Positions 9,241 to 63,020 of a stretch of DNA of 64,000 nucleotides are shown here, piece after piece. The stretch covers positions 1,544 to 65,543 of the forward strand of contig CALWUI010000003.1 of NCBI GenBank assembly GCA_944384705.1, written 5' to 3'. Under the pieces are notes generated by a model. It saw only the letters and a list, made by a program, of their open reading frames with translations, ran no database searches and was not told the origin of the DNA. This DNA is from an uncultured Clostridia bacterium. GTDB taxonomy: Bacteria > Bacillota > Clostridia > Oscillospirales > Acutalibacteraceae. Each line of letters starts with the position of its first letter. The first letter of the stretch is position 1. Both the position numbers and the translations under genes were made by a program.

Positions 9241-10527
9241 TTGATAAGGAAATCTGTAAGAAGATTTATTTATTTTATTTTGAGCGGAGTTATTATTGGT
9301 TATGCTTTATACCATTTGTGGATGGCCTTCTGGCCTAACATAAAAACAGAAACTGCCCATATGGTTAATGTTTATGATAACATTGACGCGCAAGCATATG
9401 TTGTTAGGAATGAAAATACCATTGATGATGATTTATATGGGTTTGTAAATTTTAATTTGACAGATGCTGAAAAAATAGAAAAAAATGGTGTGATTGCGCT
9501 AGTTTATCCTTCTGAAAAAGAAGCCGTAATAGACAAAAAAATTAACTTTATTAAAAGAGAATTAAATAGGTTAGAAGACTTAAAAAAATTTGGATTGGGA
9601 CTATCTTTCAACCCAGCCTCAATTGATCCTAGAGCATATTTAGAAATTAATGATTTTATAAAAAATATAAATGATTTCGAATTTAATAAATTAAAAAAAA
9701 ATAGAGATAATCTTCTTTGTCTTATAAATGAAAGACAAATATCTGCTGGCCAAAATTTAAATATGGATGAAAAGATTAGTCAACTTAATAATGAATTATA
9801 TAAACTGAATTTGCAAAAAAACAAAAACATTAAAAAAGTTTTAGCAAAAGATTCAGGTTATTTTGTTGGCCATACAGACGGTTACGAAAATTCATTTTCT
9901 TATAATGATATACTTAACATTAAAGTAGATCAAGTTGATTCGTTAATAAAAAGTTATTCTGCTAACTGCAATAATAATTCAGCCAAATTAGTTACGGATT
10001 CGAAATGGTTTGTTGCATGTAATTTGGAAAGAAACGATGTTTTAAAATTAAATTTAGACCAGTATGTAGAATTATTTATACCTCTTGTTAGTGCAAATAA
10101 AATTAAAGCTAGAGTTGTTGCGATTAACCAGCAGGACAAAAATTCTGTTGCGGCGGTTGTATTGGAATGTGATTATATAGATGAAGAAATTTTGTGTATG
10201 CGTAGTGAGCCAATTAAAATTGGTATAGCAGAGTATAGTGGGATCTCTATAAGTAAGGATGCAATACACGAAAAATTGTTGACTCGCAACGTTATTGACA
10301 ATGAGACGGGAAAAGAAAAAAATGAAGAAAAGAATGTTACTGGTGTTTATGTTCGGCATGGAAGGCAAATGGCTTTTAGAGAAATAAATATTGTTTTTTC
10401 TGATGAAGATTATGTTATTTGTAATCCGGATGAAAATAATGCTAACTTATTTTCGGGTAGAACTATAAAAGAATATGATGAGATTGTTGTTAAGGGAAGA
10501 GATCTATATGATGGCAAGTTCATTTAA
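9241..10527 (+). CDS. membrane-anchored coiled-coil protein (HlyD-like / membrane-fusion-like)
   Basis: 428 aa with a TTG start, one N-terminal TM helix, a central coiled-coil and beta-rich flanks. Sits upstream of sepF, as in many Clostridia. Confidence 0.45.
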   Translation: MIRKSVRRFIYFILSGVIIGYALYHLWMAFWPNIKTETAHMVNVYDNIDAQAYVVRNENTIDDDLYGFVNFNLTDAEKIEKNGVIALVYPSEKEAVIDKKINFIKRELNRLEDLKKFGLGLSFNPASIDPRAYLEINDFIKNINDFEFNKLKKNRDNLLCLINERQISAGQNLNMDEKISQLNNELYKLNLQKNKNIKKVLAKDSGYFVGHTDGYENSFSYNDILNIKVDQVDSLIKSYSANCNNNSAKLVTDSKWFVACNLERNDVLKLNLDQYVELFIPLVSANKIKARVVAINQQDKNSVAAVVLECDYIDEEILCMRSEPIKIGIAEYSGISISKDAIHEKLLTRNVIDNETGKEKNEEKNVTGVYVRHGRQMAFREINIVFSDEDYVICNPDENNANLFSGRTIKEYDEIVVKGRDLYDGKFI

Positions 10528-11931: not shown

Positions 11932-14727
11932 ATGCCTAAAGACTATAATGAAACATTAAATCTACCAAAAACTAAATTTTCTATGCGTGCAAATTTGCCT
12001 CAGACTGAACCGAATCTTTTGCAAAAATGGGAAGAAAATAATTTATATGATAAGTTAATGAAAAAAAATCAAGATAAACCAACTTATGTGGTACATAATG
12101 GCCCCCCATATGCAAATGGAAGTATTCATATGGGGCATGCTTTGAATCATATTTTGCAGGAGTTTGTAGTTAGATACAAGAATATGTCTGGATTTAAGGC
12201 TCCTTTTGTGCCGGGGTGGGATACTCATGGTCTACCAACTGAGCTCAAAGCGAGAAAAAAAGCTGGAGTAAATAATTCATTAGATATATCTGATATGAAA
12301 CTTCGTAACTTGTGTAAAGACTTTGTTATGGAGTATATAGAAGATCAAAAGACACAATTTAAAAGACTCGGCATTTTAGCAGACTGGGGTCATCCTTATG
12401 TGACGTTACAAAAAGATTATGAGGCTAAACAAATTGAAGTTTTTGCTAAGATGGCTTGTGATGGGCATATCTATCGCGGATTAAAGCCTGTTTACTGGTG
12501 TTCGGACTGCAAAACCGCACTTGCTGAGGCTGAAATAGAATATGCTAATGATATTTGCTATTCCATATACGTTAAGTTTAAGATAAAAAATGATAATGGT
12601 AAACTTACTAGTTTGGACCTAGATTTAAATCGGATGTATTTTGTTATTTGGACTACTACAGCTTGGACTTTGCCAGGAAATGTTGCTATTTGTGTCGGTC
12701 CAGACTTTGACTATAATATTGTAGAATGTGATGGCGAATATTATATTATTGCAGATAAGCTTTGTGATTCGGCAATGAAGAAGGCCGGAAAAGAAAATTA
12801 TAAAGTAGTGGCTTCGATAAAGGGTTCAGAACTTGAATTTATGACGGTAGAACATCCATTTTTGGATAGAGAATCATTAGTTATTGTAGGAGATCATGTG
12901 ACGCTAGATTCAGGAACAGGTTGTGTTCATACTGCACCAGGACATGGCGTTGAAGATTTTGAAGTCTGTCAGAAATATAAAAATATTAAAGTGATGGTTC
13001 CAGTTGATGATAACGGAGTTTTAACCGAAGAGGCCGGAATGTTTGCAGGACTTAGTACGGAAAAAGCTGGCAAGCCAATTGCACAATATCTCGATGATAT
13101 TGGAGCGCTGCTTGCTACAGAAAAAATAGAACATCAATATCCGCATTGTTGGAGATGCAAGAACCCTGTTATATTTAGAGCAACTGAACAATGGTTCTGC
13201 TCGATTGATGATTTTAAGGATAATGTGTTAAAAGAAATACAAAAAGTTAGATGGATCCCTACATGGGGCCAAGAGAGAATCTCTTCGATGGTTCGTGAGC
13301 GTAGAGATTGGTGTATTTCTCGACAGAGAAAATGGGGAGTTCCATTGCCAATTTTCTTCTGTGAAGAATGTGGAGAGCCATTAATAGAAAAAGATGCTAT
13401 GCTAAAGGTTGCAGAAATTTTTAGAGCTGAAGGTTCGGATTCTTGGTTTATAAAACCGGTTGAAGAAATTTTGCCTGCCGGAATATCGTGTAAAAAATGT
13501 GGAAGTAAAAAGTTTAAAAAAGAAACAGATATTATGGATGTTTGGTTTGATTCAGGAGTCTCACATGCAGCTGTTTGTGCACAGAGAGACGATCTTGCTT
13601 GGCCAGCGGATTTATATTTTGAAGGTGCAGATCAATATAGAGGCTGGTTTCAGTCTTCACTTTTAACATCTGTTGCAACTACTGGAAAGGCTCCCTACAA
13701 AATGGTGATTTCTCATGGATGGGTTGTCGACGGAGAGGGAAGAAAACAATCAAAATCTTTGGGCAACGGAATGGAACCACAGAAGATAGTTAATCAGTAT
13801 GGAGCGGATATTTTAAGATTGTGGGTGGCTTCTTCTGATTATCATGCGGATGTTCGGCTTTCGCAAGAAATATTAAAGCAATTATCTGAAGCCTATAGAA
13901 AAATTAGAAATACGATTCGTTATATGTTAGGAAATCTTTACGACTTTGATCCAAATAAGAATATGGTAGATTTAAGTAAGCTTTTGCCTTTAGATAAATG
14001 GGCTATTTGCAAATTAAATAAGCTTATTGAGAATGTTTTAACTTCCTATGAAGAATTTGAATTCCATAAGGTTTATCATGATGTGCATCGCTTTTGTGTT
14101 GTGGATATGTCTAATTTTTATTTTGATGTATTAAAAGACCGTCTTTATGTCGAACGTGCAGATGGAGTTTCTAGAAGATCGGCTCAAACGGTAATTTATT
14201 TAATTTTAAATGCTATAACTAGGCTTTTAGCACCGATTTTGGCATTTACAACTGAAGAAGTTTGGCAGTGTATACCTCATGTAAAAGGTGAAGAGACTGA
14301 ATCTGTATTATTTAATTCTATGCCAGAAATTTTAAATATAAATGTTTCAGAAGATTTTATAAGGACTTGGGATAAAATTATTAATATAAGAATAGAAGTC
14401 CAAAAAGTTCTTGAAGAGGCTAGAAAGAATAAGATTATCGGCTCTTCTCTTGAAGCTTGTGTGACTTTAAAATGCGATGAAGATTTGTATGACTTTATTT
14501 TGCCATTGCTTGGAGATTTAAAGGACATTTTTATAGTTTCTCAAGTAAAAATAGATAAAAACATTGAAAGAGGTAATACTTCTACAGACATAAAAGGATT
14601 AGATATTACGATAAGTCGTGCAGAGGGAGAAAAATGTGAACGTTGTTGGATTTTTAGTGAAACTGTAGGCAATAATGCTACAGGTGAACAGCTCTGTAGT
14701 CGTTGTGCAGAGATATTAAATAAATAA
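11932..14727 (+). CDS. ileS: isoleucine--tRNA ligase
   Basis: 931 aa. HIGH motif (PYANGSIHMGH), KMSKS-type motif (KQSKS), CP1 editing domain, C-terminal Zn-ribbon (CERCW...CSRC). Confidence 0.95.
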   Translation: MPKDYNETLNLPKTKFSMRANLPQTEPNLLQKWEENNLYDKLMKKNQDKPTYVVHNGPPYANGSIHMGHALNHILQEFVVRYKNMSGFKAPFVPGWDTHGLPTELKARKKAGVNNSLDISDMKLRNLCKDFVMEYIEDQKTQFKRLGILADWGHPYVTLQKDYEAKQIEVFAKMACDGHIYRGLKPVYWCSDCKTALAEAEIEYANDICYSIYVKFKIKNDNGKLTSLDLDLNRMYFVIWTTTAWTLPGNVAICVGPDFDYNIVECDGEYYIIADKLCDSAMKKAGKENYKVVASIKGSELEFMTVEHPFLDRESLVIVGDHVTLDSGTGCVHTAPGHGVEDFEVCQKYKNIKVMVPVDDNGVLTEEAGMFAGLSTEKAGKPIAQYLDDIGALLATEKIEHQYPHCWRCKNPVIFRATEQWFCSIDDFKDNVLKEIQKVRWIPTWGQERISSMVRERRDWCISRQRKWGVPLPIFFCEECGEPLIEKDAMLKVAEIFRAEGSDSWFIKPVEEILPAGISCKKCGSKKFKKETDIMDVWFDSGVSHAAVCAQRDDLAWPADLYFEGADQYRGWFQSSLLTSVATTGKAPYKMVISHGWVVDGEGRKQSKSLGNGMEPQKIVNQYGADILRLWVASSDYHADVRLSQEILKQLSEAYRKIRNTIRYMLGNLYDFDPNKNMVDLSKLLPLDKWAICKLNKLIENVLTSYEEFEFHKVYHDVHRFCVVDMSNFYFDVLKDRLYVERADGVSRRSAQTVIYLILNAITRLLAPILAFTTEEVWQCIPHVKGEETESVLFNSMPEILNINVSEDFIRTWDKIINIRIEVQKVLEEARKNKIIGSSLEACVTLKCDEDLYDFILPLLGDLKDIFIVSQVKIDKNIERGNTSTDIKGLDITISRAEGEKCERCWIFSETVGNNATGEQLCSRCAEILNK

Positions 14728-19102: not shown

Positions 19103-20434
19103 ATGGAAGAATTACCGCTTTATAGTGCATTAAAAAAACAAGAAAAACTAAGTCGAATATCATTTCACACCCCTGGGCACAAAAACAATAGTAAATTTCA
19201 GGCAATAGATTTCTTTAAGCTAGACTACACAGAACTTCCTGGAACAGACAGTTTATATGACGCACACACGGTTATTAAAAAATCAGAAGAACTAATGTCT
19301 AAGCTTTTTGAATCAAAACAGACGATTTTTTCAGCTGGAGGGTGTACATTATGTATCCAAGCAATGCTGAAATTAGCATTGCCATATGGAGGAAAAATAA
19401 TTGCATCCAGAATGATACATAAAAGCGCAGTTAACACGATGGCAATTTTAAATGCTAAAGTTAAGTGGGTAATTCCTAATATAAACCAAAGTTCTGGGCA
19501 ATTTGAGCAAGTTGATACGGCTGAGATAGAGAAGGCTCTGTTTTATAATAGGGATGCTTCATGTGTTTATGTAACTAGTCCAGATTATTTTGGCAAAATT
19601 GCAGATATAAAAAGTATTGCGAAAGTTTGCAAATCATATAATGTTTCACTAATTGTCGATAATGCTCATGGTACGCATTTAAAATTTTTACCTAAAGATA
19701 TTCATCCAATAACGTTAGGGGCAGATATCGTAGCGGATTCGGCACATAAAACCTTGCCGGTGTTAACGGGTGGTGCGCTTTTACATATTGCAAACAAAAA
19801 GTATATCTCAAAAGCAAAAGAATCCATGGCTATATTTGGCTCAACTAGCCCTTCTTATCCTATAATGGCATCACTAGACGTTTGTAGAGATTGGTTAAGT
19901 AAAAATGGAAGAGAGGCTTATTCAAAACTTGAAAAAAACATTTTAAAAATAAAGGATGTAGCATTAAAAAAATGTATTTTGGATGATTTTGAAAATGTTG
20001 ATCCTATAAGACTTTCTTTAAATACAGCCAAAGTTGGTGTGCTGGGGATAGATGCTGCTGAATATTTTAGAAAAAATGAAGTGGAACCTGAGCTTGCCGA
20101 CAGAGACCGAGTAGTATTTATTGCTACGCCGTTGAATTCTGACGATGATTTAGCAAAGTTAAAAAGTTTGATTATAAATTTTTCATCAAATAAAGCTATC
20201 AAAAATTATATTCCTATTTTTGAAGAGCCTATTGTAGCAAAAACACTACATGAAGCAATGTTTAGTCAATCGGAAAAAATTAGTTCTGCTAATTCAGTAG
20301 GAAGGATTTGTGCTAGTACAGTTTGTCCATGCCCTCCGGGAATTCCAATATTGGTACCAGGAGAAGTTATTACTGAAAATTCTGTCCAAAATTTGTTGCA
20401 CTATGGAATTCTTTCAATAGATGTGATAAAATAA
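19103..20434 (+). CDS. Orn/Lys/Arg decarboxylase family PLP enzyme (YaaO-like)
   Basis: 443 aa. FHTPGHK N-terminal motif and PLP-lysine region DSAHKTLP. Sits in the yaaO position of the yaaO-darA-holB-ricT synteny. Confidence 0.85.
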   Translation: MEELPLYSALKKQEKLSRISFHTPGHKNNSKFQAIDFFKLDYTELPGTDSLYDAHTVIKKSEELMSKLFESKQTIFSAGGCTLCIQAMLKLALPYGGKIIASRMIHKSAVNTMAILNAKVKWVIPNINQSSGQFEQVDTAEIEKALFYNRDASCVYVTSPDYFGKIADIKSIAKVCKSYNVSLIVDNAHGTHLKFLPKDIHPITLGADIVADSAHKTLPVLTGGALLHIANKKYISKAKESMAIFGSTSPSYPIMASLDVCRDWLSKNGREAYSKLEKNILKIKDVALKKCILDDFENVDPIRLSLNTAKVGVLGIDAAEYFRKNEVEPELADRDRVVFIATPLNSDDDLAKLKSLIINFSSNKAIKNYIPIFEEPIVAKTLHEAMFSQSEKISSANSVGRICASTVCPCPPGIPILVPGEVITENSVQNLLHYGILSIDVIK

Positions 20435-27145: not shown

Positions 27146-28426
27146 CTATCTTATAGATTTTTTATTATAATTGCTAATACTAACAGATGCCGTTTTGTTG
27201 GAGCTATAATTTTTATTTTGGGGATTGCTATTTAGACTTTTTTTATTTGATTCCTGAGAATCTTTATTTTTGCCATCAGAGCTTTTGTTTTGATAGGGCT
27301 GGCTTTTAATTGAATCTTCATATATAAATTTTGCAAGATCGTATCTTGCTTTGTTTAGATCGCTTATAACAAGTACAGATGCACCATTAATGTTTTGACC
27401 AGTAAAATTGCCTTCTTCTGGGAGTCTAAACTCTTCAAAATCATACTTAATGTATTTGAGCGCATTCTTGCTAAGTGTTATGATTTCATTCTTTTTAAAA
27501 TTAGTATTTATATATGGCCCAGCTTTTTCGATTATACTAATAATCTGAGGCAAGCTGCTGGATTTAAATTTTTGTAAAACCAAAGAAATTACATGACGTT
27601 GCCTAAAAGTTCTAGCGTAGTCATCATGGAGCCCTTCTGCAGTAGGAACTTTACGGCTTCTAGCGTATTGCAAAGACTGTGCACCATTTAAATGTTGTAT
27701 GCCGTCTACTTCCTTAAGAAGTGGAGATTTAAATGGTGTTAAGCCACCTTTAACTAGTGCAGCGTCTAGCTCTACAAGCAAGTTATTTATATGATGCGCT
27801 TCTTTTGCAGTAATTTCAATATCGAGGCCACCAATAATATCGATAATATCTTTAAATCCTTCAAAATCAACTGTGCAGAAGCGATCTATTTTTATACCAA
27901 AGTTGTGTTCAATTGTTTTTATTGCAAGCTCTTCTCCTCCGAGCGCAATTGCTGTATTAATTCGGTTATTTTTATACCCAGGAATATTAAGCCACATATC
28001 TCGCATTAGAGAAGTGAGCTTAATTTTTTTTCTCCTACTATCAAGTGATAAAATCAAAATAGAATCACTTCTGCTATGCACATCGGCTTCTTCATGGCGA
28101 TCCACTCCGAACAAAGCTACATTTAAAACCATAGGATCCTGCGCTGACCCTGAAACATATTCTGACTCATTTCTGTCTATAGGGGTATAATTTAATGAAT
28201 CTAACATTTTGTATGCATATATTAAAGATCCACCAATTAATCCTATAATAATAGAAATAATTATTCCAAAAGAAAAAACAATCTTTCTTTTTCGAATTTT
28301 TTTTAAATTAATATTTGAACGATTATTTATATGATGCTTAGAGCTACTATAGATATCTTTTTTTTCGTTCAAATTTTCAAATCCATCGTTATAATCATAA
28401 TCCGAATTTTTGTCTTTGTACGACAT
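27146..28426 (-). CDS. LytR-CpsA-Psr (LCP) family cell-envelope phosphotransferase
   Basis: Cytoplasmic tail, one TM helix and an LCP domain (NVALFGVD......RSDSILILSLD, LTSLMRD). Ser/Asn/Lys-rich C-terminal tail. Confidence 0.85.
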   Translation of the reverse strand: MSYKDKNSDYDYNDGFENLNEKKDIYSSSKHHINNRSNINLKKIRKRKIVFSFGIIISIIIGLIGGSLIYAYKMLDSLNYTPIDRNESEYVSGSAQDPMVLNVALFGVDRHEEADVHSRSDSILILSLDSRRKKIKLTSLMRDMWLNIPGYKNNRINTAIALGGEELAIKTIEHNFGIKIDRFCTVDFEGFKDIIDIIGGLDIEITAKEAHHINNLLVELDAALVKGGLTPFKSPLLKEVDGIQHLNGAQSLQYARSRKVPTAEGLHDDYARTFRQRHVISLVLQKFKSSSLPQIISIIEKAGPYINTNFKKNEIITLSKNALKYIKYDFEEFRLPEEGNFTGQNINGASVLVISDLNKARYDLAKFIYEDSIKSQPYQNKSSDGKNKDSQESNKKSLNSNPQNKNYSSNKTASVSISNYNKKSIR

Positions 28427-28445: not shown

Positions 28446-30398
28446 TTATTTATTTTTTATTTTTGAAGCAAAAAAAGTAAAAATAAACCATAAGATTGAG
28501 TATACAGTTACCTCAAGTGTATGTAGATAAGAAACACTTGAGCAAAAAATTAAATATAAAATTAAAAATATATTTAAAATTAACTGCAAAATTTGTAATG
28601 ATGCCACTAAAACAATGTTGCTTTTTGCAATGCAACAAATACTAATAGTTTTAATAAACGAAAAGCAGGAGCCAAAAGTAGATAAAAAAGCTTCAGACTT
28701 TGGCTCTGTTTTATCGTATACTTCATTTATAATTTGCGCATCTTTATATGAAAGAATTTTTAAAAACTTTTTATCTATGCTAAAATCATGCGATATTTTA
28801 TGAATAGTTATATTGCTATCGGATGTTTTTATAAAAATTTTTATGTCTTTATTTTTTATGCAAGAAACTAAAGCTGGAGCTAAACTTTTGGATGGAGCAT
28901 ATTCTAAAATAAACATAGCAACCAGATTCTGGCCAACGGCAAAATAAGTTAGCTCGCAGTTAGGCACTCGATATTTTTCCTCATAATCTCTACTGGGAGG
29001 TATAATTTTAAAATCTTTTAAAAGGTCACGATTGCCAACTAAAATTCTTTTTCCATTAACCCATCCAACAACGCCTTTTTCCTCATTATAAACTATGTCA
29101 GAGGCTTTCGTCAAAATTTTTCTTTTTCCAAGGATTATTTTGTCAAAGACTCGGCTAATAGGAGTATTTAACTGACAAACGACAGCTGCCGCATAGAGTA
29201 TTGCCTCATCTATACGTTGCCCATCAAAGGTTTTTATTCCTCGCAAGACAACATTATTAGGTGGATAAAGATCAGAATCATTTAAAACAATGCTTTTAAT
29301 ATTTGACAATTTATTTATTGCATTTTCGCTAATAATCATAGCACGACTTTTTAGCGCATACCTACAAGCAGAAGAAATAACTGTGTTTATTATAAATGAA
29401 AAAACAATAGGATTAAAAATCACTAAGCAAATATTAGTAATTTCTAGAGATAATATTAAATTTTTGCCAAAAACAAAATTAACAATACCGCAAAATAAAG
29501 AAAAAATTATACTGACCGGAATAAAATTAGCAACTATAAAGTCAAGAAAAGTGACTTTAAAAGAATTATTAATAAAATTGCTAAGGTACTTTGTTTTATA
29601 TTGATAAGCTGTTAAAAGGCTACTTTTAGTTTTTCTTAAATTCAAAAGTTCTTTTAAAGAATAAATATCTATATTGTATTTAGGGCGCAACGAGTTAATA
29701 AATTTAAAATTATAAAGAATTCGCTTTTTTATTGATATTGAATTTAAAACAGTGAGCATAAAAAGAAAAATAAAAAGACTTGTAAGTGCATTATAACTAA
29801 AATAACCATAAAAAAAAGAAAAAATAATCAAGACTATATTGTGAAAAAAGGTAAAAATTAATGGAAAAATAATTGCTGTGTCCAAAGTAAAAATAGCACA
29901 AGAGAAGTGTAAAAAAGCAGATTTTATAATTTTAAAACCGACTAAACAACTTAGAATTAATAGAATCATTGAGCAAATTGAATATATAGTGGAAGTATTT
30001 GAGCAAAACTCAATCAAAAATTTTGGTTTTACCCTAATTAAAGCATCAAAACAAACAGAGATAGAAAAAAGTAAAAAAAGTATTACCGCACCTGTTTTTA
30101 AAGAATTTACTTCTCTCTTCAATTTTTCTTTTATATTTTTATCATCTTCTGGATATAAGAGTTTAGTTTCTTCTGATAAAAATTCAGCCAATCTTGTTTC
30201 GTTGTAAAATTCATCATTTAAATAAGATTTAACTTGAGCTTTGTCGGAAGTAGGACTGTCAGGAACTTCTAAAGGACTTGTATTTTTAAAATTTAATTTA
30301 TTTTCTGTTGTACTAAAAATCTCTTTGTATTTTACTTTCTTTTTATTTTTAAAAGAATTAATCAAACCATCAAAAAATCGATTCAAAAATAAAAACAC
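28446..30398 (-). CDS. P1B-type-ATPase-like polytopic membrane protein with degenerate catalytic motifs (probable pseudoenzyme)
   Basis: 650 aa. The layout follows heavy-metal P-type ATPases, but CPC is replaced by FNP, DKTGT by NDSDL, TGD by TSD and GDGxND by FGSCFS. No recognisable actuator TGE. Confidence 0.6.
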   Translation of the reverse strand: MFLFLNRFFDGLINSFKNKKKVKYKEIFSTTENKLNFKNTSPLEVPDSPTSDKAQVKSYLNDEFYNETRLAEFLSEETKLLYPEDDKNIKEKLKREVNSLKTGAVILFLLFSISVCFDALIRVKPKFLIEFCSNTSTIYSICSMILLILSCLVGFKIIKSAFLHFSCAIFTLDTAIIFPLIFTFFHNIVLIIFSFFYGYFSYNALTSLFIFLFMLTVLNSISIKKRILYNFKFINSLRPKYNIDIYSLKELLNLRKTKSSLLTAYQYKTKYLSNFINNSFKVTFLDFIVANFIPVSIIFSLFCGIVNFVFGKNLILSLEITNICLVIFNPIVFSFIINTVISSACRYALKSRAMIISENAINKLSNIKSIVLNDSDLYPPNNVVLRGIKTFDGQRIDEAILYAAAVVCQLNTPISRVFDKIILGKRKILTKASDIVYNEEKGVVGWVNGKRILVGNRDLLKDFKIIPPSRDYEEKYRVPNCELTYFAVGQNLVAMFILEYAPSKSLAPALVSCIKNKDIKIFIKTSDSNITIHKISHDFSIDKKFLKILSYKDAQIINEVYDKTEPKSEAFLSTFGSCFSFIKTISICCIAKSNIVLVASLQILQLILNIFLILYLIFCSSVSYLHTLEVTVYSILWFIFTFFASKIKNK

Positions 30399-40381: not shown

Positions 40382-40418
40382 TTTGTTAATTAAGCTTTAC
40401 TAAAGGATGGGTATTTTT

Positions 40419-42104
40419 ATGAAAAAATTTTTATCAGCATTTTTAGCGCTGACCTTATTTATGTGTGGTGAAACTAAAAGTTTTGCAGAGAATAATATCA
40501 CTGCAGCAAACGTACTAGGCAACAGTGAAGAAAATGATGAAGAACTTACTTTCTTGGGTGAACTTTTTGGAAATAGGGGCATTTTTTATTCCACTATTAA
40601 TGGAACAAAAAATATTGTAAACCGCGCTATAAACAGTATAGAAAAATTTGGTCAGCTTGGGTTTAGACTTAGTGGAATTAGCTACGGATTATCTGCACTT
40701 ATGTCTTTATATGTTTCAGCAAAAAGTTTGTACGACAAAATAAAATTGAGATTTTCAAAAATTAACCAAGATGTGGATGTTGTAAATGAAGCATTTGATA
40801 AAGAATTGCAGTGCATTAAAGGTCAAGATAAAGCAAAAAAGCGAATGAAAGAGATTGTAGCTTCGGTTATTGATGCTAGAAACGAGGCAAAAGAAAACAA
40901 TAAACCATATGGCAAAGGTGACATTATATATATGATTGGGCCATCGGGTGTTGGTAAAACTTTCTCTGCAGAGTGCTTGGCTAGAGCTATAATGGGTGCT
41001 AACGCTCAGCCGGTCAGAATAGATTCGTCTTGCTTTGAAAAAGACTCGACTACAAGCGTAAAAAGCCAGATTCTTTATATGAGAGAACAACAAAGAAATA
41101 CCAGTGCCTCAAGCTACTATTATGTGGATAACTCAATTGCTGCGCAGATAGCCTCGAATCCCAATACTGTACTTATATTTGATGAATACGATAAATGGTG
41201 TACGCCAGATACTGATGAATTTCTTAGAGCTATTATGGATAAAGGTGTAATCTATAGAGATGGAGAAAAGATAGATTGTTCTGGTATACTGGTTATAGTC
41301 ATTTCGAATGAGGATATTTCTTCTGTAACGGCAGGAAATAACTGCGGTGTTTTTAAGGATGACGGGACAGGTTCTAGAACCCATAATGTACATGATAAAT
41401 CATTTTTAAATAGATTGAATATCATAGAATTTGAAAATTTAAGTGAGGATGATTATGAGTTAATCACTCAGTATCAATTGAAAATTATAGCTGATAGGTA
41501 TCAAAAATTGTTCTCGATAAATTTGGATTTTGGCGATACGGCAAGAAAAATTGCAATTGCCACAGCTAGAAGAAATCAGGGCGCTAGAGAAATAGAAAAA
41601 ATACTTGCAAGCCTAAAAATGGAAGTAATCTCTGCAAGGCAGGATAGTAAAAAATCTTTAGGATTATTTGAGCATAGATTTTTTAAAATTAATTATGACT
41701 GCGATAATGATAGATTTACTGTAAAAGAAAAAAATAACGAAGAATTTGATAGTGCAGAAGATCTAGAAAATAAAATTGTAAACAGAACACCAACGCTGGA
41801 AAAAAGTAAACGACGTGTTGAAATTTCATTAGAAAATAAGTCTGAGAAAACTCCTATGCAAACTTCTAAACAGGAAGTTAAAAAGCAAATTGAAGAAAGT
41901 CAGAATGAAAATACTGATAACTTGAGTTTAGAAAATATTGACGATGTTGAAAGATCAGCACATGCAAAGGTTTCAGCAGAGAATTCAACATTTGTAAAAC
42001 TTGAAGATGAGAATTTAACAGGGAATATATCAAAATTAACAGAAAAAAATTCAAATTTAATTGAATCAAGATGTGTTGAGCAAATTTTTTCTGTTGTGGA
42101 CTGA
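40419..42104 (+). CDS. membrane-anchored single-domain AAA+ ATPase of the ClpA/B-D2 (AAA_2 plus D2-small) type
   Basis: N-terminal signal-like helix MKKFLSAFLALTLFMCG and a second hydrophobic helix (GISYGLSALMSLYVSA). Then IKGQDKAK, Walker A GPSGVGKT, Walker B VLIFDEYDKW, sensor-1 VIVISN, a D2-small-like FLNRLNIIEF..L and GAREIEK. Low-complexity acidic C-terminal tail. Confidence 0.65.
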   Translation: MKKFLSAFLALTLFMCGETKSFAENNITAANVLGNSEENDEELTFLGELFGNRGIFYSTINGTKNIVNRAINSIEKFGQLGFRLSGISYGLSALMSLYVSAKSLYDKIKLRFSKINQDVDVVNEAFDKELQCIKGQDKAKKRMKEIVASVIDARNEAKENNKPYGKGDIIYMIGPSGVGKTFSAECLARAIMGANAQPVRIDSSCFEKDSTTSVKSQILYMREQQRNTSASSYYYVDNSIAAQIASNPNTVLIFDEYDKWCTPDTDEFLRAIMDKGVIYRDGEKIDCSGILVIVISNEDISSVTAGNNCGVFKDDGTGSRTHNVHDKSFLNRLNIIEFENLSEDDYELITQYQLKIIADRYQKLFSINLDFGDTARKIAIATARRNQGAREIEKILASLKMEVISARQDSKKSLGLFEHRFFKINYDCDNDRFTVKEKNNEEFDSAEDLENKIVNRTPTLEKSKRRVEISLENKSEKTPMQTSKQEVKKQIEESQNENTDNLSLENIDDVERSAHAKVSAENSTFVKLEDENLTGNISKLTEKNSNLIESRCVEQIFSVVD

Positions 42105-57850: not shown

Positions 57851-60367
57851 TTATGTTGTTGAAATTTCAAATCCACATTGAATTCCGCAATTGTGTGCCA
57901 AATCAACTAGATCTTGTAATTCGTCTTCTGAGAAAGCTGAAATGGTACCACTTAAGGATAACGAACCATCATCGTTTTTCGTAATACGTTGTGCAAGATA
58001 GGTAACATCATTCTTGAAAGCATCGACTGTGTCAGGCGAAATTCGAGTTAAAATTTGATCATTATTAACCATATTGTTGGCATAGAACCAATCAAAAATG
58101 TGTGAATATTGCGAATCTGCAGAAGTAAACCTACCGCGACTGAAAGAGGTATAATTAAAGGTTTTTTCAAATCCACATTGAAATCCAGCTTCATGAGCAA
58201 AGTTAATTATACGCTCGAATTCCGCGCTATTGCTATTCCAGTAACCACGACCTGTTCTTCCGGCAAAGTAATATTTTCCACTTTTATCCTTATTAAGCTG
58301 GTCAGCCAAGTGCTGTATATCAGTTTTTAAACCTGCTAAATCTTCCGATTTAACTTGCTCAAAACTTGAGATTTTATTTAAAGTTTCTAACAGATGCTTA
58401 GCTTGTTGTGTTGCTGTCCGTCCCAAATGCCCAAACTGAGTATATGAAACCGAATTTTCAGAAGGTATGCCTAATTCATTACTCATATCATCAAGAATTT
58501 TTTGAACTGCATCTATATCGAAGTGTATTTCGGATAAATGAGTATTATAGTCACGTTCAGCGTCGACTATTGCAGGGTGAGCAACAGTAATTGATTCATT
58601 CCAAACACTAGAATTGTTAACATTATCCAGCGTAATAAAAGCACTACCTTCAGGGAAATCAATAGAGAAGTAATATGACTTTATTGTTCTAATATGATCA
58701 ACTATAGCATCTGTATTCTTCATTACATTAAACAACGCAAGTTTACCAGCATCTGTTTTTGCAATTTCTTGTATGTTAGAGTCGTTGGATGAGGCACCGT
58801 AAGTAACAGGTTTTTCCGGCAGTAATTTTAGAATTGCTTTTTCAACTACATCGGCTTGGCCGGCTTTAATAGCCCTATCATTAAATATAAAGTTTTCATT
58901 CGTTGTGCTTCTTAGAGAACTCAAATAAGCATCAGGAAGCGACTCCAAAAAATTATTTTTATTATTATCTTGATAGTTCTGGCATAGTTTTAAAACATCG
59001 ATCTCATGCGTAATAGATGATTTGTTGTCGGCAGAGCGAATAGTAAACTTAATGTCAGTCGAATTGCGCTCATGTATAATGGTAGTACGATCTTTGCAAT
59101 CTAAATGTTCGATCTCAGATTTAAATGAGGAAGAAAGCATGTTGGAAATACTTCTAGCTTGAGATGTTAACTGGGCTGGAGTGAAGGGAACAGAAACGTC
59201 AGTCGAACCATAGCGAGAATTATAAATATTATATAATTGTTCGCGCACATAATTAGCCACAACGTTGGCCACTTCAGAGACTTCATCATTCAGCTCGGGT
59301 GACACAGAGTTATCCGGGCTGTCACCTGTCATCGCACCTGCCAGCAGCATCGCGGGCGTAATAATCTTAGTTAATTGGTATGAAGGTGGCACTTCATCAT
59401 TCAGCTCAGGTGGCACAGAGGTATCCGGGCTGTCATCTGTCATCGCACCTGCCAGCGGAATCGCGGGCGTAATAATCTTAGTTAATTGGTATGAAGGTGG
59501 CACTTCATCATTCAGCTCAGGTGGCACAGAGGTATCCGAGCTGTCATCTGTCATCGCACCTGCCAGCGGCATCGCGTGCTTAATAGGCTTAATTTCTAGG
59601 TGTGAAGGTTGCAGCTCAGAGTCAGTATCAACTGAAGAACGTGGAGTTTCAGAAGAAGGTGTTACTGTTGGAGTATTTGTAGTATGCCGAATGGAATTTG
59701 TAGTCGTGCTGCTAGAAACCGCCGGTGCGCCTGTCGTCGCACTTTCTAAACGATTATTATCAGCGGCTTGCTCGGCAACAGGTTGCACACCACTTTGCAT
59801 AGTTTCCTGAAAGTTTTCAGTAAGAGCCTGTTCTTCACCATCTTGAGTTATTTGGCCAGCTGGGGTTGCACTTTCGGACCTTAGACCTGCTTCCGAATTA
59901 ATTTCGTCGCTATTGGAATCAACATCTTCACTTTGAGATTGTTCTACACGTGGATCCGCTTGATTATTTTCTTCATCTGTTTTTGAATAAGTAGTTGATA
60001 TGGATTGGCTTTGTTCAGGGGAAGATGGGAGAAGATTGACTGTAGCTGCTGTACCAAGTGACAAAAATAACACAGAAGCCAATCCAATAGCAGTATTACG
60101 AGGAGAAAGCCCCCCACTTACATCTAATAAATCTTCATCGCTTAATTCCATATATTTTTTGTTAGCATATTCAATCAGTTCGTCAGCAGAAAACTCTAAG
60201 TTTCTTTTCTTTGCTAAAGGAATTATTTTCTCCTCAACAAGATCTTTAAGTTTTGCAAAGTCCGAAGTTTTTAGTTGTACTTCTTTATCCAAACCATTTA
60301 AACTTTTTGCTAACTCTCTATCGCTAGCTACCAAATCATAAAATTTTTTTACGTTTTCTCTAGACAT
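57851..60367 (-). CDS. large (838 aa) protein with a Nif11-like double-glycine leader domain, a hydrophobic helix, an S/T/P-rich repeat region and a duplicated C-terminal module
   Basis: Start at the ATG at 60367 (GGAGAG RBS 8 nt upstream). aa 1-86: MSRENVKKFYDLV..D.EL......IIPLAKKRNLEFSADELIEY....ELSDEDLLDVSGG. A hydrophobic segment follows the GG. 3x37-aa tandem repeat. The two C-terminal modules end in GFQCGFE and GIQCGFE. Confidence 0.7.
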   Translation of the reverse strand: MSRENVKKFYDLVASDRELAKSLNGLDKEVQLKTSDFAKLKDLVEEKIIPLAKKRNLEFSADELIEYANKKYMELSDEDLLDVSGGLSPRNTAIGLASVLFLSLGTAATVNLLPSSPEQSQSISTTYSKTDEENNQADPRVEQSQSEDVDSNSDEINSEAGLRSESATPAGQITQDGEEQALTENFQETMQSGVQPVAEQAADNNRLESATTGAPAVSSSTTTNSIRHTTNTPTVTPSSETPRSSVDTDSELQPSHLEIKPIKHAMPLAGAMTDDSSDTSVPPELNDEVPPSYQLTKIITPAIPLAGAMTDDSPDTSVPPELNDEVPPSYQLTKIITPAMLLAGAMTGDSPDNSVSPELNDEVSEVANVVANYVREQLYNIYNSRYGSTDVSVPFTPAQLTSQARSISNMLSSSFKSEIEHLDCKDRTTIIHERNSTDIKFTIRSADNKSSITHEIDVLKLCQNYQDNNKNNFLESLPDAYLSSLRSTTNENFIFNDRAIKAGQADVVEKAILKLLPEKPVTYGASSNDSNIQEIAKTDAGKLALFNVMKNTDAIVDHIRTIKSYYFSIDFPEGSAFITLDNVNNSSVWNESITVAHPAIVDAERDYNTHLSEIHFDIDAVQKILDDMSNELGIPSENSVSYTQFGHLGRTATQQAKHLLETLNKISSFEQVKSEDLAGLKTDIQHLADQLNKDKSGKYYFAGRTGRGYWNSNSAEFERIINFAHEAGFQCGFEKTFNYTSFSRGRFTSADSQYSHIFDWFYANNMVNNDQILTRISPDTVDAFKNDVTYLAQRITKNDDGSLSLSGTISAFSEDELQDLVDLAHNCGIQCGFEISTT
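59280..59612 (-). repeat. 3 x 111-bp in-frame tandem repeat inside the large Nif11-leader protein gene
   Basis: Units at 59280-59390, 59391-59501 and 59502-59612. They encode PLAGAMTDDS.DTSVPPELNDEVPPSYQLTKIITPA.. The segment is locally much more GC-rich than the rest of the window. Confidence 0.9.
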
Positions 60368-60396
60368 TTTAAACACTCTCCTTTTAATTTTAATAT

Positions 60397-61359
60397 TTAC
60401 TTAACCTCATTATAAAATTCTAAAATCATTTTTAAATCTTCCTGATCCAAATTAGCATCTTCTGCAGAATACCGTCTGAATTGACCTTGTAAATACAATG
60501 TTCCGTCTGGTGCTTCTTTTATTTGATTCCCAACATGTTTTATATCTGATATAAGCAATGGTCTATGGTTTTCGTCCACATCGTCTAAGGATATATATTG
60601 AACCTTATTTAAAAATTGAACCAATCTATTTGCTTGATAATTAAGGCTGATAGCAAAGTCTTTCACACTTTTAACATAACTTTTAACATCTATCGAAATT
60701 TCATCTTCAAGTTCTTGAATTTTTGAGTTAGCCTCTTGTAATTCTTCCTCTAGATCTTGGATTTCCTTAGACTGGTTTGAAATTTGTAATAAAAGTTTTT
60801 GCTCATCGTCAACTTTATATCCAAAACGAACATGTTTACTCTTTTTTAGCTCTTCTTGAATCTTCGCTATTTGTTGTTTAAGTCCTTCATTTTCTTGTTG
60901 CAATTGAGCAATTTGAATATTTTCTTGTTGTGTTTGATTTGTAGCTTCATTTGCTTGCTCAGTTTGCGTTTCAACACTATTTGTTTGAACAATTGGCGGT
61001 GGATCAACAGCATAGGTTGAGTGAGACAATCCTCCTGCAATAGGTCCAGCTAAGCTCATAAAAGAGAAGAGTCCTGCAACTGCTTTGCCAGCTAAATTTA
61101 AACCTCCGGAAACATTTAATAAATCGTCTTCATCTAGTGCCCCAATTTGTTCTTTTGTGTAGTCAATAAATTCCTCTGGTGTAAAGTCTAAATGATTTTT
61201 CCTTGCAATTGGAATAATTTTTTGAGAAATAACGTATTCATCATTAAAAGTTTTATTATTTTCTTGATGAACTTTCTCCTTAACATTTATTATTTGTTTT
61301 CTAATTTTATTATCAGACTTTAACAGTTCATAGAATTTTTCTACGTTCGCTCGAGACAT
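60397..61359 (-). CDS. 320-aa paralog with the same Nif11-like double-glycine leader domain, a hydrophobic helix, a coiled-coil and one copy of the shared C-terminal module
   Basis: MSRANVEKFYELL.SD..I....IIPIARKNHLDFTPEEFIDY....ALDEDDLLNVSGG, with GG at aa 85-86 exactly as in the downstream paralog. Q/E-rich coiled-coil. 20-nt gap to the next gene. Confidence 0.7.
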   Translation of the reverse strand: MSRANVEKFYELLKSDNKIRKQIINVKEKVHQENNKTFNDEYVISQKIIPIARKNHLDFTPEEFIDYTKEQIGALDEDDLLNVSGGLNLAGKAVAGLFSFMSLAGPIAGGLSHSTYAVDPPPIVQTNSVETQTEQANEATNQTQQENIQIAQLQQENEGLKQQIAKIQEELKKSKHVRFGYKVDDEQKLLLQISNQSKEIQDLEEELQEANSKIQELEDEISIDVKSYVKSVKDFAISLNYQANRLVQFLNKVQYISLDDVDENHRPLLISDIKHVGNQIKEAPDGTLYLQGQFRRYSAEDANLDQEDLKMILEFYNEVK

Positions 61360-61425: not shown

Positions 61426-61454
61426 ATATTATCACAAATAAAAAACAATGTCAA
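61426..61454 (-). promoter_or_regulatory. sigma-A promoter for the two-gene Nif11-leader operon
   Basis: On the minus strand: TTGACA (61454-61449), 17-nt spacer, TAATAT (61431-61426). Confidence 0.55.
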
Positions 61455-61556
61455 CACTTTTTAAAGAAAATAAATAAAAATAATTGAAACATAATTAATT
61501 TTATGATAAAATTAATAAAAATAAGACTTATTAGCAAGAAAGTAGGCGTAAGAAAA

Positions 61557-63020
61557 ATGTTTTTTAGCAAATATTTCAAAGATAAGAAAAAAATTTTTAT
61601 ATCAGGGGTCATAATTACTTTAATTATTTTCTTTACTATATTTTTAATACAATATAATAATCGAATAAGTGCTATTGGCTGGCACGAATCGGAAAATGGA
61701 AGATACTACATATTAGAAAATAATCAGAAAGCATTAGGCTTTACAGATATTGATGGAAATACATACTATTTTGGCAGTGATGGATTTTTACGCACATCTT
61801 GGCAAGAGATTGAAGGTGAAAAATATTATTTCGATTCAGATGGTATTCTCCAAAAGGGTACAAAAAAAATAGACGGACTAGATTATCATTTTGATGAAGA
61901 TACTGGTATTCTTTATACTGGATTTAGAGATATAAATAATCAAAAATATTATTTTGATGATCAAGGATTTGCTAAAAGTGGATTTTTAAATCTTAGTGGA
62001 AGAAAATATTTTCTTAACGATGATGGAGCGGTTCAAACGGGGTTAAAAGATATCGACTCTAAAACATATTTTTTTAGTAACGATGGTGTCTTACAAACGG
62101 GACTAATATCAGATGGAAATGATACGTACTATGCAAATGAAGATGGTGTTTTGCAGACAGGCTATGTGGATTTAAATGGGAAAAACGTATATTTTAATGA
62201 TTCATACAATTTAGCAAAAGGCTGGACAACAATAAATGGGATAAATTATTATTTTAACAACGATGGTGAAAAAGTTACCGGTAAACAAGAAATTGACTCG
62301 CAGTTATATTATCTAAACGATGACGGAGCACTAATTACTGGCTGGGTAAGTGAAAATGGTAAAAAGTATTATAAAGACAAATATGGTAAAAATTTAGTTG
62401 GAACTCATAGAATAGGGCAAAAAATATATGTCTTCGATAATTCAGGAGCACTAACCAAAACTCAAAATGTATCCAATATAAAAAACAAAAAAGCAAACAA
62501 AGAAAATAAAGAAAGTAAAGAAAAAGATCCGCCACAAAAGGACGAACCAAAGCAAGAAGAATATTATGCCAAAACATATAATAATCCAGAGTATAACATT
62601 TTGCCAATAGATGAGCCGGATGAATTAGATGTTGAAGCCATAGAAGAAATATTGTGTGATACAAATAGCAGCAAATTTAGTATAAGCTCTATATTAGATT
62701 CTACCGGAACAAGTTTAGTTAGTATTTATAACTATGTTCGAAATAATATGCATTATGTTAATGCTCCTGGAGGAAGTACTGAAGAATTAGTAAATTTTGC
62801 GTTAGAAAATGGTGGGGGTACTTCTCAACACTATGCCGCGTTAATGTACAAATTATTAACTAAAGCAGGTTACAATGCAAAAATAGTTCAAGGCTCATTG
62901 CGAGGTAACCCACATTATTGGAATCAGGTGGAATTAAATGGAGTATGGTACCATATAGATGCGTTGCTTGGTAAGTATATGATTCCTGAAGATCAGCTTG
63001 GTGCAGCATATTGTTATTAA
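61557..63020 (+). CDS. cell-wall-binding-repeat protein with a C-terminal transglutaminase-like domain
   Basis: N-terminal TM/signal anchor. About 12 choline-binding/CW_binding_1-type 20-aa repeats (..G..YYF..DG.L.TG). Lys/Glu-rich linker. C-terminal transglutaminase-core-like region (GGGTSQHYAALMYKLL...PHYWNQV...WYHIDAL). An alternative upstream ATG lies at 61503. Confidence 0.7.
   Translation: MFFSKYFKDKKKIFISGVIITLIIFFTIFLIQYNNRISAIGWHESENGRYYILENNQKALGFTDIDGNTYYFGSDGFLRTSWQEIEGEKYYFDSDGILQKGTKKIDGLDYHFDEDTGILYTGFRDINNQKYYFDDQGFAKSGFLNLSGRKYFLNDDGAVQTGLKDIDSKTYFFSNDGVLQTGLISDGNDTYYANEDGVLQTGYVDLNGKNVYFNDSYNLAKGWTTINGINYYFNNDGEKVTGKQEIDSQLYYLNDDGALITGWVSENGKKYYKDKYGKNLVGTHRIGQKIYVFDNSGALTKTQNVSNIKNKKANKENKESKEKDPPQKDEPKQEEYYAKTYNNPEYNILPIDEPDELDVEAIEEILCDTNSSKFSISSILDSTGTSLVSIYNYVRNNMHYVNAPGGSTEELVNFALENGGGTSQHYAALMYKLLTKAGYNAKIVQGSLRGNPHYWNQVELNGVWYHIDALLGKYMIPEDQLGAAYCY
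61677..62455 (+). repeat. array of about 60-bp coding repeats (cell-wall-binding repeats)
   Basis: Recurrent G(W/F)..(I/L)(D/N)G..YYF..DG....G peptide period seen throughout this span. Boundaries are approximate. Confidence 0.6.

Follow-up and report, generated by a model that had tools for sequence, protein, structure and literature searches.

Two adjacent genes on the minus strand (57851 to 61359) of the window, that is, the whole 64-kb stretch of DNA from an uncultured Clostridia bacterium analyzed here, encode paralogous large proteins. Each protein opens with a leader of the Nif11 double-glycine type, followed directly by a segment that resembles a Sec signal sequence. The window has a G+C content of about 31% and is a chromosomal housekeeping stretch with MutS/MutL, MiaA/MiaB, IleRS, Mur ligases, SHMT, RelA and RecJ, among others. 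The identical 838-aa and 320-aa proteins are recorded in an NCBI assembly and in gut-type metagenomes, and the closest named relatives are metagenome-assembled genomes labelled uncultured Clostridia, Acutalibacteraceae and Eubacteriales. The following features were assigned to the two genes and their N-terminal regions:

61426 to 61454, minus strand: predicted sigma-70-type promoter of the two-gene operon, TTGACA-17 nt-TAATAT with TG ahead of the −10 hexamer (consensus match only)
60397 to 61359, minus strand: short paralog, 320 aa, with leader, putative signal sequence, Q/E/K-rich coiled coil and C-terminal module
61102 to 61359, minus strand: short paralog aa 1-86, Nif11-like helical leader ending in ALDEDDLLNVSGG (paralogy, Pfam scoring and model helices)
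61009 to 61101, minus strand: short paralog aa 87-117, LNLAGK + AVAGLFSFMSLAGPIAGGL + SHSTYA|V, Sec-like n/h/c layout with a candidate signal-peptidase-I site (pattern-based)
57851 to 60367, minus strand: long paralog, 838 aa from ATG 60367 (identical 838-aa protein in an NCBI assembly)
60110 to 60367, minus strand: long paralog aa 1-86, Nif11-type double-glycine leader ending in ELSDEDLLDVSGG (PF07862, TIGR03798 and PDB 9zn4 matches)
60029 to 60109, minus strand: long paralog aa 87-113, LSPRN + TAIGLASVLFLSLGTAATVNLL, putative hydrophobic signal/anchor segment, highly conserved among homologs

The open reading frame (ORF) of the long gene was listed as 57851 to 60376, opening with GTG 60376. 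The true start is ATG 60367 (MSRENV...), since AGGAG precedes it and every homolog opens with MSRENV. The protein therefore has a length of 838 aa and the gap between the two genes is 29 nt, which corrects the 20 nt given in an earlier note on this DNA. The short gene carries AAGGAGG 10 nt upstream of its ATG. The TTGACA-17-TAATAT promoter named in that note was found again, as a consensus match only; the number of promoter-type consensus matches in the region was 17 compared to 14.9 expected from shuffles. No terminator-like sites were found in the region scanned.

The Nif11-type leader

The leaders of both proteins end in LxxxDLLxVSGG. The GG was found at residues 85 and 86 in both proteins and in every close homolog, and the hydrophobic residues of both leaders are V at −4, L at −7, L at −12 and Y or I at −15, exactly as had been described before. 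The double-glycine signature (terminal GG, hydrophobic residues at −4, −7 and −12, acidic residue at −8) is present in ELSDEDLLDVSGG as well as in ALDEDDLLNVSGG.

The long protein passes the Pfam model Nif11 (PF07862) with 28.0 bits (cut-off 23.8) and reached 28.1 bits with TIGR03798 (E 1.8e-6, aa 48-89), which is below the curated cut-off of 32.3. The short protein scored 15.8 bits with PF07862, under the cut-off, and did not match TIGR03798, but its N-terminus is paralogous to that of the long protein (BLASTP E 2e-18, 33% identity over 144 aa), so that the assignment of an 86-aa Nif11-type leader to both proteins stands. In addition, a profile of eleven family N-termini matches PDB 9zn4_A (E 7.7e-6), a 77-aa chain named 'Nif11 domain-containing protein' which ends in ...LEAVAGG. 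In the AlphaFold2 model of the full-length short protein, which was used for secondary structure only, helices are found at aa 2-73 and the GG region is unstructured. Weak matches to a class IIb bacteriocin model span the GG site plus the following helix. Judged by these comparisons, the leader belongs to the Nif11 double-glycine leader family. For LahT150, a C39 peptidase domain, the last 13 leader residues have been described to be sufficient (PMC6363468).

The hydrophobic segment after the double glycine

With the ATG start, 752 aa follow the GG in the long and 234 aa in the short protein, in agreement with the earlier note. The segment of the short protein has a K at +6, a 19-aa core, the helix breakers GP/GG and the sequence TYA|V, and that of the long protein has an R at +4 and a 22-aa core. 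Throughout the family, the GG is followed by xSP(K/R) or a similar short stretch, with K or R at +4 in 66 of 109 proteins. The hydrophobic core has a median length of 22 residues, and 77% have an n-region with a net positive charge. Many members next carry a helix breaker and a small-x-small site (SANA|M, TAHA|T, SASA|E, SAKA|M, TANA|E, LAFA|D), and the corresponding sites in the clade of the short protein are TYA|V, AYA|G, SYA|E and AFA|M.

An [AVST]xA site without a following Pro and at most 12 residues past the end of the core was identified in 53 of 114 distinct sequences (46%), compared to 15.5% in control windows of the same proteins. These sites cluster 27-31 residues after the GG. The binomial P of 6.5e-15 for the enrichment overstates it, since the sequences are related and non-independent. 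The 'TM-like helix' proposed previously looks like more than a plain helix, namely like a Gram-positive Sec signal peptide or signal anchor in anatomy and geometry. It is not located at the extreme N-terminus, as 86 residues precede it, and would become N-terminal only upon cleavage at the GG.

A family of large proteins with the same leader

Word-indexed searches resulted in only 13 and 8 relatives. The exhaustive profile search with the first 121 aa against 1.84 billion representatives identified 687 clusters at E<=1e-3, 150 of them at E<=1e-10. Among the best 150 of the 687 clusters, 109 have a length of at least 250 aa (median 719, maximum 4,018). The positions of the C39 motif are near-invariant in these 109 long homologs, with L at −12 in 103, D or E at −8 in 93, L at −7 in 106, V or I at −4 in 108 and S at −3 in 97 of them. 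The GG is present in 109 of 109; this count is not an independent one, since [SATNDCV]GG was used to place the site in each protein. The positions −12, −8, −7, −4 and GG are those read by C39 peptidase domains. A Nif11 match at E<=1e-4 was found in 46 of 72 long family members.

The members derive mostly from uncultured gut and rumen Clostridia. Their genes form arrays of 2-3 paralogs, of which each has its own conserved subtype of the hydrophobic segment, and the largest gene is the last one. This architecture, its conservation and the gene neighbourhoods described below were observed directly. In a scan of JGI metagenomes, the narrow N-terminal alignment gave 0 matches and a later alignment gave 4 loci, and tblastn of the leader against the PLSDB plasmids and INPHARED phages resulted in no match. 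One candidate locus (L017, Inconstantimicrobium porci) proved to be a false positive that lies within a glutamyl-tRNA-synthetase-like ORF. The large family size, like the conserved transglutaminase-like neighbour described below, goes beyond the earlier note.

The weaker matches of the leader profile are Cys-rich proteins of 100-140 aa. At locus L024 (96 to 2747), a radical-SAM enzyme comes after two short Nif11-leader precursors (136 and 132 aa) with Cys-/Gly-rich cores. The locus is an ordinary one for peptides that are synthesized on ribosomes and modified after translation (RiPPs), and the profile that matches the large proteins also matches its leaders; the same leader family therefore also serves genuine RiPP precursors.

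Search for exporters, peptidases and modifying enzymes

For the Pfam scan of the window, all ORFs of at least 120 aa except three overlapping larger genes were used, plus one of 88 aa. No C39 peptidase, ATP-binding cassette (ABC) exporter, LanM, YcaO or SPASM radical-SAM protein was found among them, and the sole radical-SAM enzyme is MiaB-like (UPF0004, TRAM). The six-frame translation of the window contained no ABC signature together with a Walker A motif. Both results bear out the earlier statement that no C39/ABC exporter or RiPP-modifying enzyme lies within the 64 kb. Two ORFs of 687-728 aa just downstream, considered by their size as C39-peptidase ABC exporters (PCATs), were rejected, as they encode RecJ and RelA/SpoT. 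In the 12 related loci (L001, L002, L008, L010, L014, L015, L016, L018, L019, L020, L021-23 and L025), no C39/ABC exporter was found up to 10 kb on each side of the arrays.

HlyD-family accessory proteins go with some Gram-positive PCATs. The window encodes a HlyD_2-family protein of 428 aa (9241 to 10527, plus strand) between miaA and sepF/divIVA, without an ABC partner in the vicinity. It is located 50 kb from the operon, and nothing connects the two.

In one subclade, a GNAT-like gene with a product of 191-196 aa directly follows the arrays:

L020, 9695 to 10282: GNAT-like gene
L021, 12651 to 13223: GNAT-like gene
L022 and L023, 12892 to 13464: GNAT-like gene
L025, 17579 to 18166: GNAT-like gene

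The GNAT-like proteins reach 19-20 bits on Acetyltransf_1, just below the cut-off, carry a C-terminal CxxCxGPCKCDAA motif and match each other between loci with a phmmer E of about 1e-93. In this subclade, xSPK forms the first residues after the GG. No homolog was found among the window ORFs, and none was seen at the closest loci.

C-terminal module, coiled coil and linker

The C-terminal regions of the two proteins contain the following elements:

60403 to 60672, minus strand: C-terminal module of the short paralog, aa 230-319, single copy (jackhmmer E 4.9e-25)
58163 to 58459, minus strand: C-terminal module copy 1 of the long paralog, aa 637-735, ending in GFQCGFE (jackhmmer; AlphaFold2)
57866 to 58168, minus strand: C-terminal module copy 2 of the long paralog, aa 734-834, ending in GIQCGFE (jackhmmer)
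59280 to 59613, minus strand: three tandem 111-bp (37-aa) repeats in the S/T/P/D/E-rich linker of the long gene (repeat detection)

The earlier finding of a shared module, twice in the long protein and once in the short one, is correct; its length was extended from about 50 to about 95 aa. Using jackhmmer, the module could be found in 58 proteins, mostly at the extreme C-terminus and sometimes repeated. The AlphaFold2 prediction based on a 35-sequence alignment has a predicted local distance difference test score (pLDDT) of 91 and a predicted TM-score (pTM) of 0.84, and the predicted fold consists of helix, helix, three short strands and helix. Foldseek revealed no relative of the module in the PDB (best E 0.35), the sequence-profile matches in the PDB were designed coiled coils only, and the profile of the module gave nothing at E<=1e-3 against 5.8 billion proteins. 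The module is a real, new domain of about 95 aa, and its structure is predicted with confidence. No PDB relative was found for the mature part of the long protein either.

Some paralogs (L010, 5055 to 7721; L002, 3 to 2489; L015, 9980 to 16612) end in another conserved element, ...(A/S)CG(T/S)(G/S)(K/E)TDYKHKAML..., in place of the 95-aa module.

In the short protein, a Q/E/K-rich coiled coil is predicted at aa 133-252; PADLOC matches to LmuB/JetC on this protein were discarded as coiled-coil noise. The 111-bp repeats of the long gene show 91% matches and lie in the part with the highest G+C content of the window (0.40 compared to about 0.30). The closest homolog of the long protein is 75 aa shorter, and in the metagenome scaffold L003 an N-gap falls exactly in the 111-bp tandem repeat. 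The copy number is probably variable. A split gene or pseudogene at L003 was rejected, since the break is the run of N inside the repeat.

The Pfam analysis of 72 long members revealed almost nothing besides Nif11. BspA-type LRR_5, a surface-protein domain, was found in three giant members, ADP-ribosylglycohydrolase in two, and Transglut_core and a weak LytTR match in one each. Like LRR_5, the S/T/P-rich linkers are extracellular-type content downstream and support the explanation favoured below.

Proposed processing and export

The explanation which we favour, tentatively and as one that falls a little short of probable, is that both genes encode Sec-inserted envelope proteins of a paralog array whose cytoplasmic RiPP-type leader is removed by an unlinked C39 peptidase. 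It is a hybrid of the two readings put forward in the earlier note. The leader is likely to be cleaved rather than merely retained, because the C39 motif is near-invariant in 109 diverged large proteins.

Cleavage, topology, assembly and the peptidase itself we infer from the sequences as follows. The two genes would form one operon for cell-envelope proteins with a two-part N-terminal region. The first part (aa 1-86) would be a folded Nif11-type leader that stays in the cytoplasm and ends in a canonical double-glycine site. The second part (about 25-31 aa) would be a Sec-type signal with a short K/R n-region and a hydrophobic core of about 20 residues, inserting through Sec in N-in/C-out orientation so that the large C-terminal portion ends outside. 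A C39-type cysteine peptidase encoded elsewhere, either a PCAT's protease domain or a stand-alone relative, would cut after the GG at the inner membrane face. The short protein would then probably be freed by signal peptidase I after TYA, and the long protein would probably remain anchored through its helix. Outside the cell, the paralogs may join via their shared 95-aa modules into a hetero-oligomeric surface structure, on which the wall-bound transglutaminase-like neighbour may act. As to why such proteins would have a leader, it might gate export or dock a partner.

Several observations weigh against this explanation. The part of the genome searched for a C39 peptidase was the 64-kb window, where none was found, and cleavage is deduced from the motif. 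The helical Nif11 part of about 70 aa is strongly conserved though C39 recognition takes only about 13 residues; the conservation of this whole part points to a second binding partner. The signal-peptide assignment is based on simple pattern statistics over related sequences. No clear small-x-small/signal-peptidase site follows the core in the long protein and its clade (SLGTAATVNLL, SLGSAAAINLM), and for this reason the long protein is probably a signal anchor. The full-length AlphaFold2 model of the short protein is poor (pLDDT 52), and ADP-ribosylglycohydrolase and LytTR domains are more usual inside cells.

A wider proposal is that Clostridia have an unrecognised maturation or export route for large surface proteins in which a RiPP-type Nif11 leader controls export; we consider this conceivable but rather doubtful. 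In such a route, C39 cleavage may unmask the Sec signal ('leader-gated secretion'), or a PCAT may be dedicated to translocating or inserting proteins that are hundreds to thousands of residues long, and in some clades the same leader may in addition bring in a GNAT that modifies the protein.

Double-glycine leaders and C39 peptidases count as small-peptide machinery for bacteriocins, pheromones and RiPPs. In the family described here, no fewer than 109 diverged clusters of 250-4,000-aa proteins keep the leader intact ahead of a signal-like segment, and this widespread combination of leader and signal hints at an unknown protein-export step. If the leader is cleaved, a large class of protein substrates of C39 peptidases would have been overlooked, genome-mining tools which count Nif11 leaders as RiPP precursors would mis-call such genes, and there would be a new control point in Gram-positive surface-protein export. 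The wider route, if true, would mean that leader-peptide logic holds for whole proteins as well as for small peptides. Independently, the domain of about 95 aa marks otherwise unannotated surface proteins of abundant gut anaerobes.

Alternative explanations

The first reading of the earlier note was PCAT-dependent secretion, in which an unlinked C39-ABC exporter would cleave the leader and translocate or laterally insert the whole cargo of 234-752 aa. This would be a Gram-positive counterpart of the type I secretion of giant proteins. The recognition motif is intact, the weak class IIb bacteriocin-model matches across the GG site and the helix are consistent with it, and a PCAT that handles an envelope protein has a precedent in MAM of Faecalibacterium (PMC12184118). 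However, the cavity of PCAT1 was determined to be about 15,000 cubic angstroms compared to about 9,000 for a 66-residue cargo (PMC6959990), which fits about one such cargo, whereas the cargos in the family reach 3,900 aa. No PCAT adjoins the arrays of the window or of the 12 related loci, although MAM and RiPP loci usually have one, and the signal-peptide features after the GG, including the small-x-small sites, would be needless for a PCAT cargo. Because of the cavity size, the missing PCAT linkage and the signal-peptide features, whole-protein export via a PCAT is unlikely, and the reading does not fit in its original form.

According to the second reading, both products would be type II membrane proteins with a retained cytoplasmic Nif11-like domain that is never cleaved and serves, for example, in the oligomerisation of the paralogs or in signalling. 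Conservation of the whole helical domain beyond the last 13 residues and the negative searches for a peptidase (64-kb window, 12 loci) are consistent with this, and the co-operonic paralogs could pair via their N-domains. But without a C39 protease it is difficult to account for the near-invariant LSxxDLxxVSGG tail of 109 diverged proteins; stand-alone Nif11 domains are not known to need this tail. A signal-peptidase site would in any case separate the domain from the exported part in roughly half of the members. Retention as originally put forward is thus considered improbable.

Protein-sized RiPP-like substrates or polymorphic effectors, whose leader would recruit a modifying enzyme (e.g. 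an acyltransferase acting on the K/R after the GG) or deliver a toxic payload, are a very remote prospect: the conserved GNAT-like gene directly after the arrays of L020, L021-23 and L025, the acylation of the first Lys of Nif11-leader selidamides by GNATs (PMC13647313), the hypervariable middle regions and the two members with ADP-ribosylglycohydrolase speak for them, but no GNAT or maturase homolog is present in the 64-kb window or was seen at the closest loci, and the polymorphic-toxin variant was ranked low because the conserved element is the C-terminal module rather than a variable toxin tip and no immunity-like small genes were seen to follow.

Comparison with known systems

The large proteins share with the Nif11-leader RiPP precursors (N11P; prochlorosins ProcA, LahA) a homologous leader of about 85 aa with an LSxxELxxVxGG end, a conserved leader in front of a hypervariable downstream part, and the occurrence of several paralogs side by side. 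In contrast to the Cys-rich core of 20-60 aa in N11P, 234-3,900 aa follow the GG here and open with a signal-like segment, and the locus is without a maturase or PCAT. Because there is no short core and no maturase, the large proteins are not RiPP precursors. For leader-guided acylation of the selidamide type, a GNAT gene beside the Nif11-leader precursor would be expected; the window is without a GNAT homolog, and only a distant subclade has one.

MAM of Faecalibacterium and CtA/PCAT1 of Acetivibrio thermocellus are similar in that they comprise clostridial GG-leader proteins which are unmodified and handled by a PCAT. MAM is a 135-aa envelope protein, and a PCAT gene adjoins it in most Faecalibacterium species (PMC12184118). 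The leaders of MAM and CtA are about 21-24 aa long and their cargos about 66-114 aa, whereas here the leader has 86 aa, cargos are as much as 35 times larger and a PCAT is not linked.

Extended signal peptides are present on giant exported proteins, such as the extended signal peptide region (ESPR) of autotransporters and TpsA proteins and the 90-aa signal peptides of serine-rich-repeat adhesins, which use the accessory Sec system. By analogy, a conserved N-terminal extension is located ahead of an ordinary n/h/c signal on unusually large surface proteins. There is no sequence relation, and those extensions are not folded RiPP-type leaders and have no double-glycine protease site. The class III signal peptides of type IV prepilins are a further analogy, as their leader is cut at the cytoplasmic face just before a membrane-holding helix, as proposed here. 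They differ in the G|F(T/S)LxE motif and the Glu at +5, both missing here, in the leader length (6-25 aa compared to 86 aa) and in the peptidase, which is the aspartic PilD compared to the cysteine-type C39 proposed here.

In the LapA/LapG system of a giant adhesin and a transglutaminase-like cysteine protease, a large surface protein is likewise encoded beside a papain-fold, transglutaminase-like extracytoplasmic protein. Unlike LapG, the neighbour found here has Ser for the catalytic Cys and choline-binding repeats. It is unlikely to cut the GG, because the hydrophobic segment would leave the GG on its cytoplasmic side.

In the literature searched, no account of large signal-bearing proteins with Nif11/GG leaders was found, which agrees with the earlier view of an undescribed use of this leader family; as the coverage was incomplete, an earlier mention is possible.

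Neighbouring genes and further observations

The gene divergent from the operon encodes the transglutaminase-like neighbour:

61503 to 63020, plus strand: N-terminal transmembrane segment, choline-binding (cell-wall-binding) repeats and transglutaminase-like core (Pfam)

The head-to-head pairing recurs at L001 (7380 to 8837), L015 (4917 to 6386) and L016 (6028 to 7482), and the neighbour is 58-85% identical between the loci though the flanking genes differ. It is a possible partner of the two-gene operon. The Ser in place of the catalytic Cys (GGGTSQHYA) is invariant in four orthologs, and the His (PHYWNQVE) and Asp (HIDAL) are kept. Judged by these residues, the protein may represent a Ser-His-Asp variant, or it may bind without being active.

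Further ORFs were noticed in the window and at the related loci. A 650-aa ORF of the window (28446 to 30398, minus strand) has no Pfam or PADLOC match and adjoins a LytR_cpsA_psr gene (27146 to 28426). AAA_2-type ATPases of about 570 aa are encoded away from the arrays in the window (40407 to 42104, plus strand) and at L015 (238 to 1968, minus strand). At L015, a small ORF (19295 to 19540, plus strand) with a GG-type motif (LDESTLETVSGG) followed by 41 residues including a CxxC is located 2.7 kb downstream of a 2,210-aa family member; the ORF could encode a bacteriocin-like peptide, or the match could be due to chance. At L001, a fragment matching aa 42-97 of the transglutaminase-like neighbour (12135 to 12392, minus strand) was found just upstream of a third paralog of 559 aa (12618 to 14297), as if the divergent promoter region had undergone a segmental duplication.

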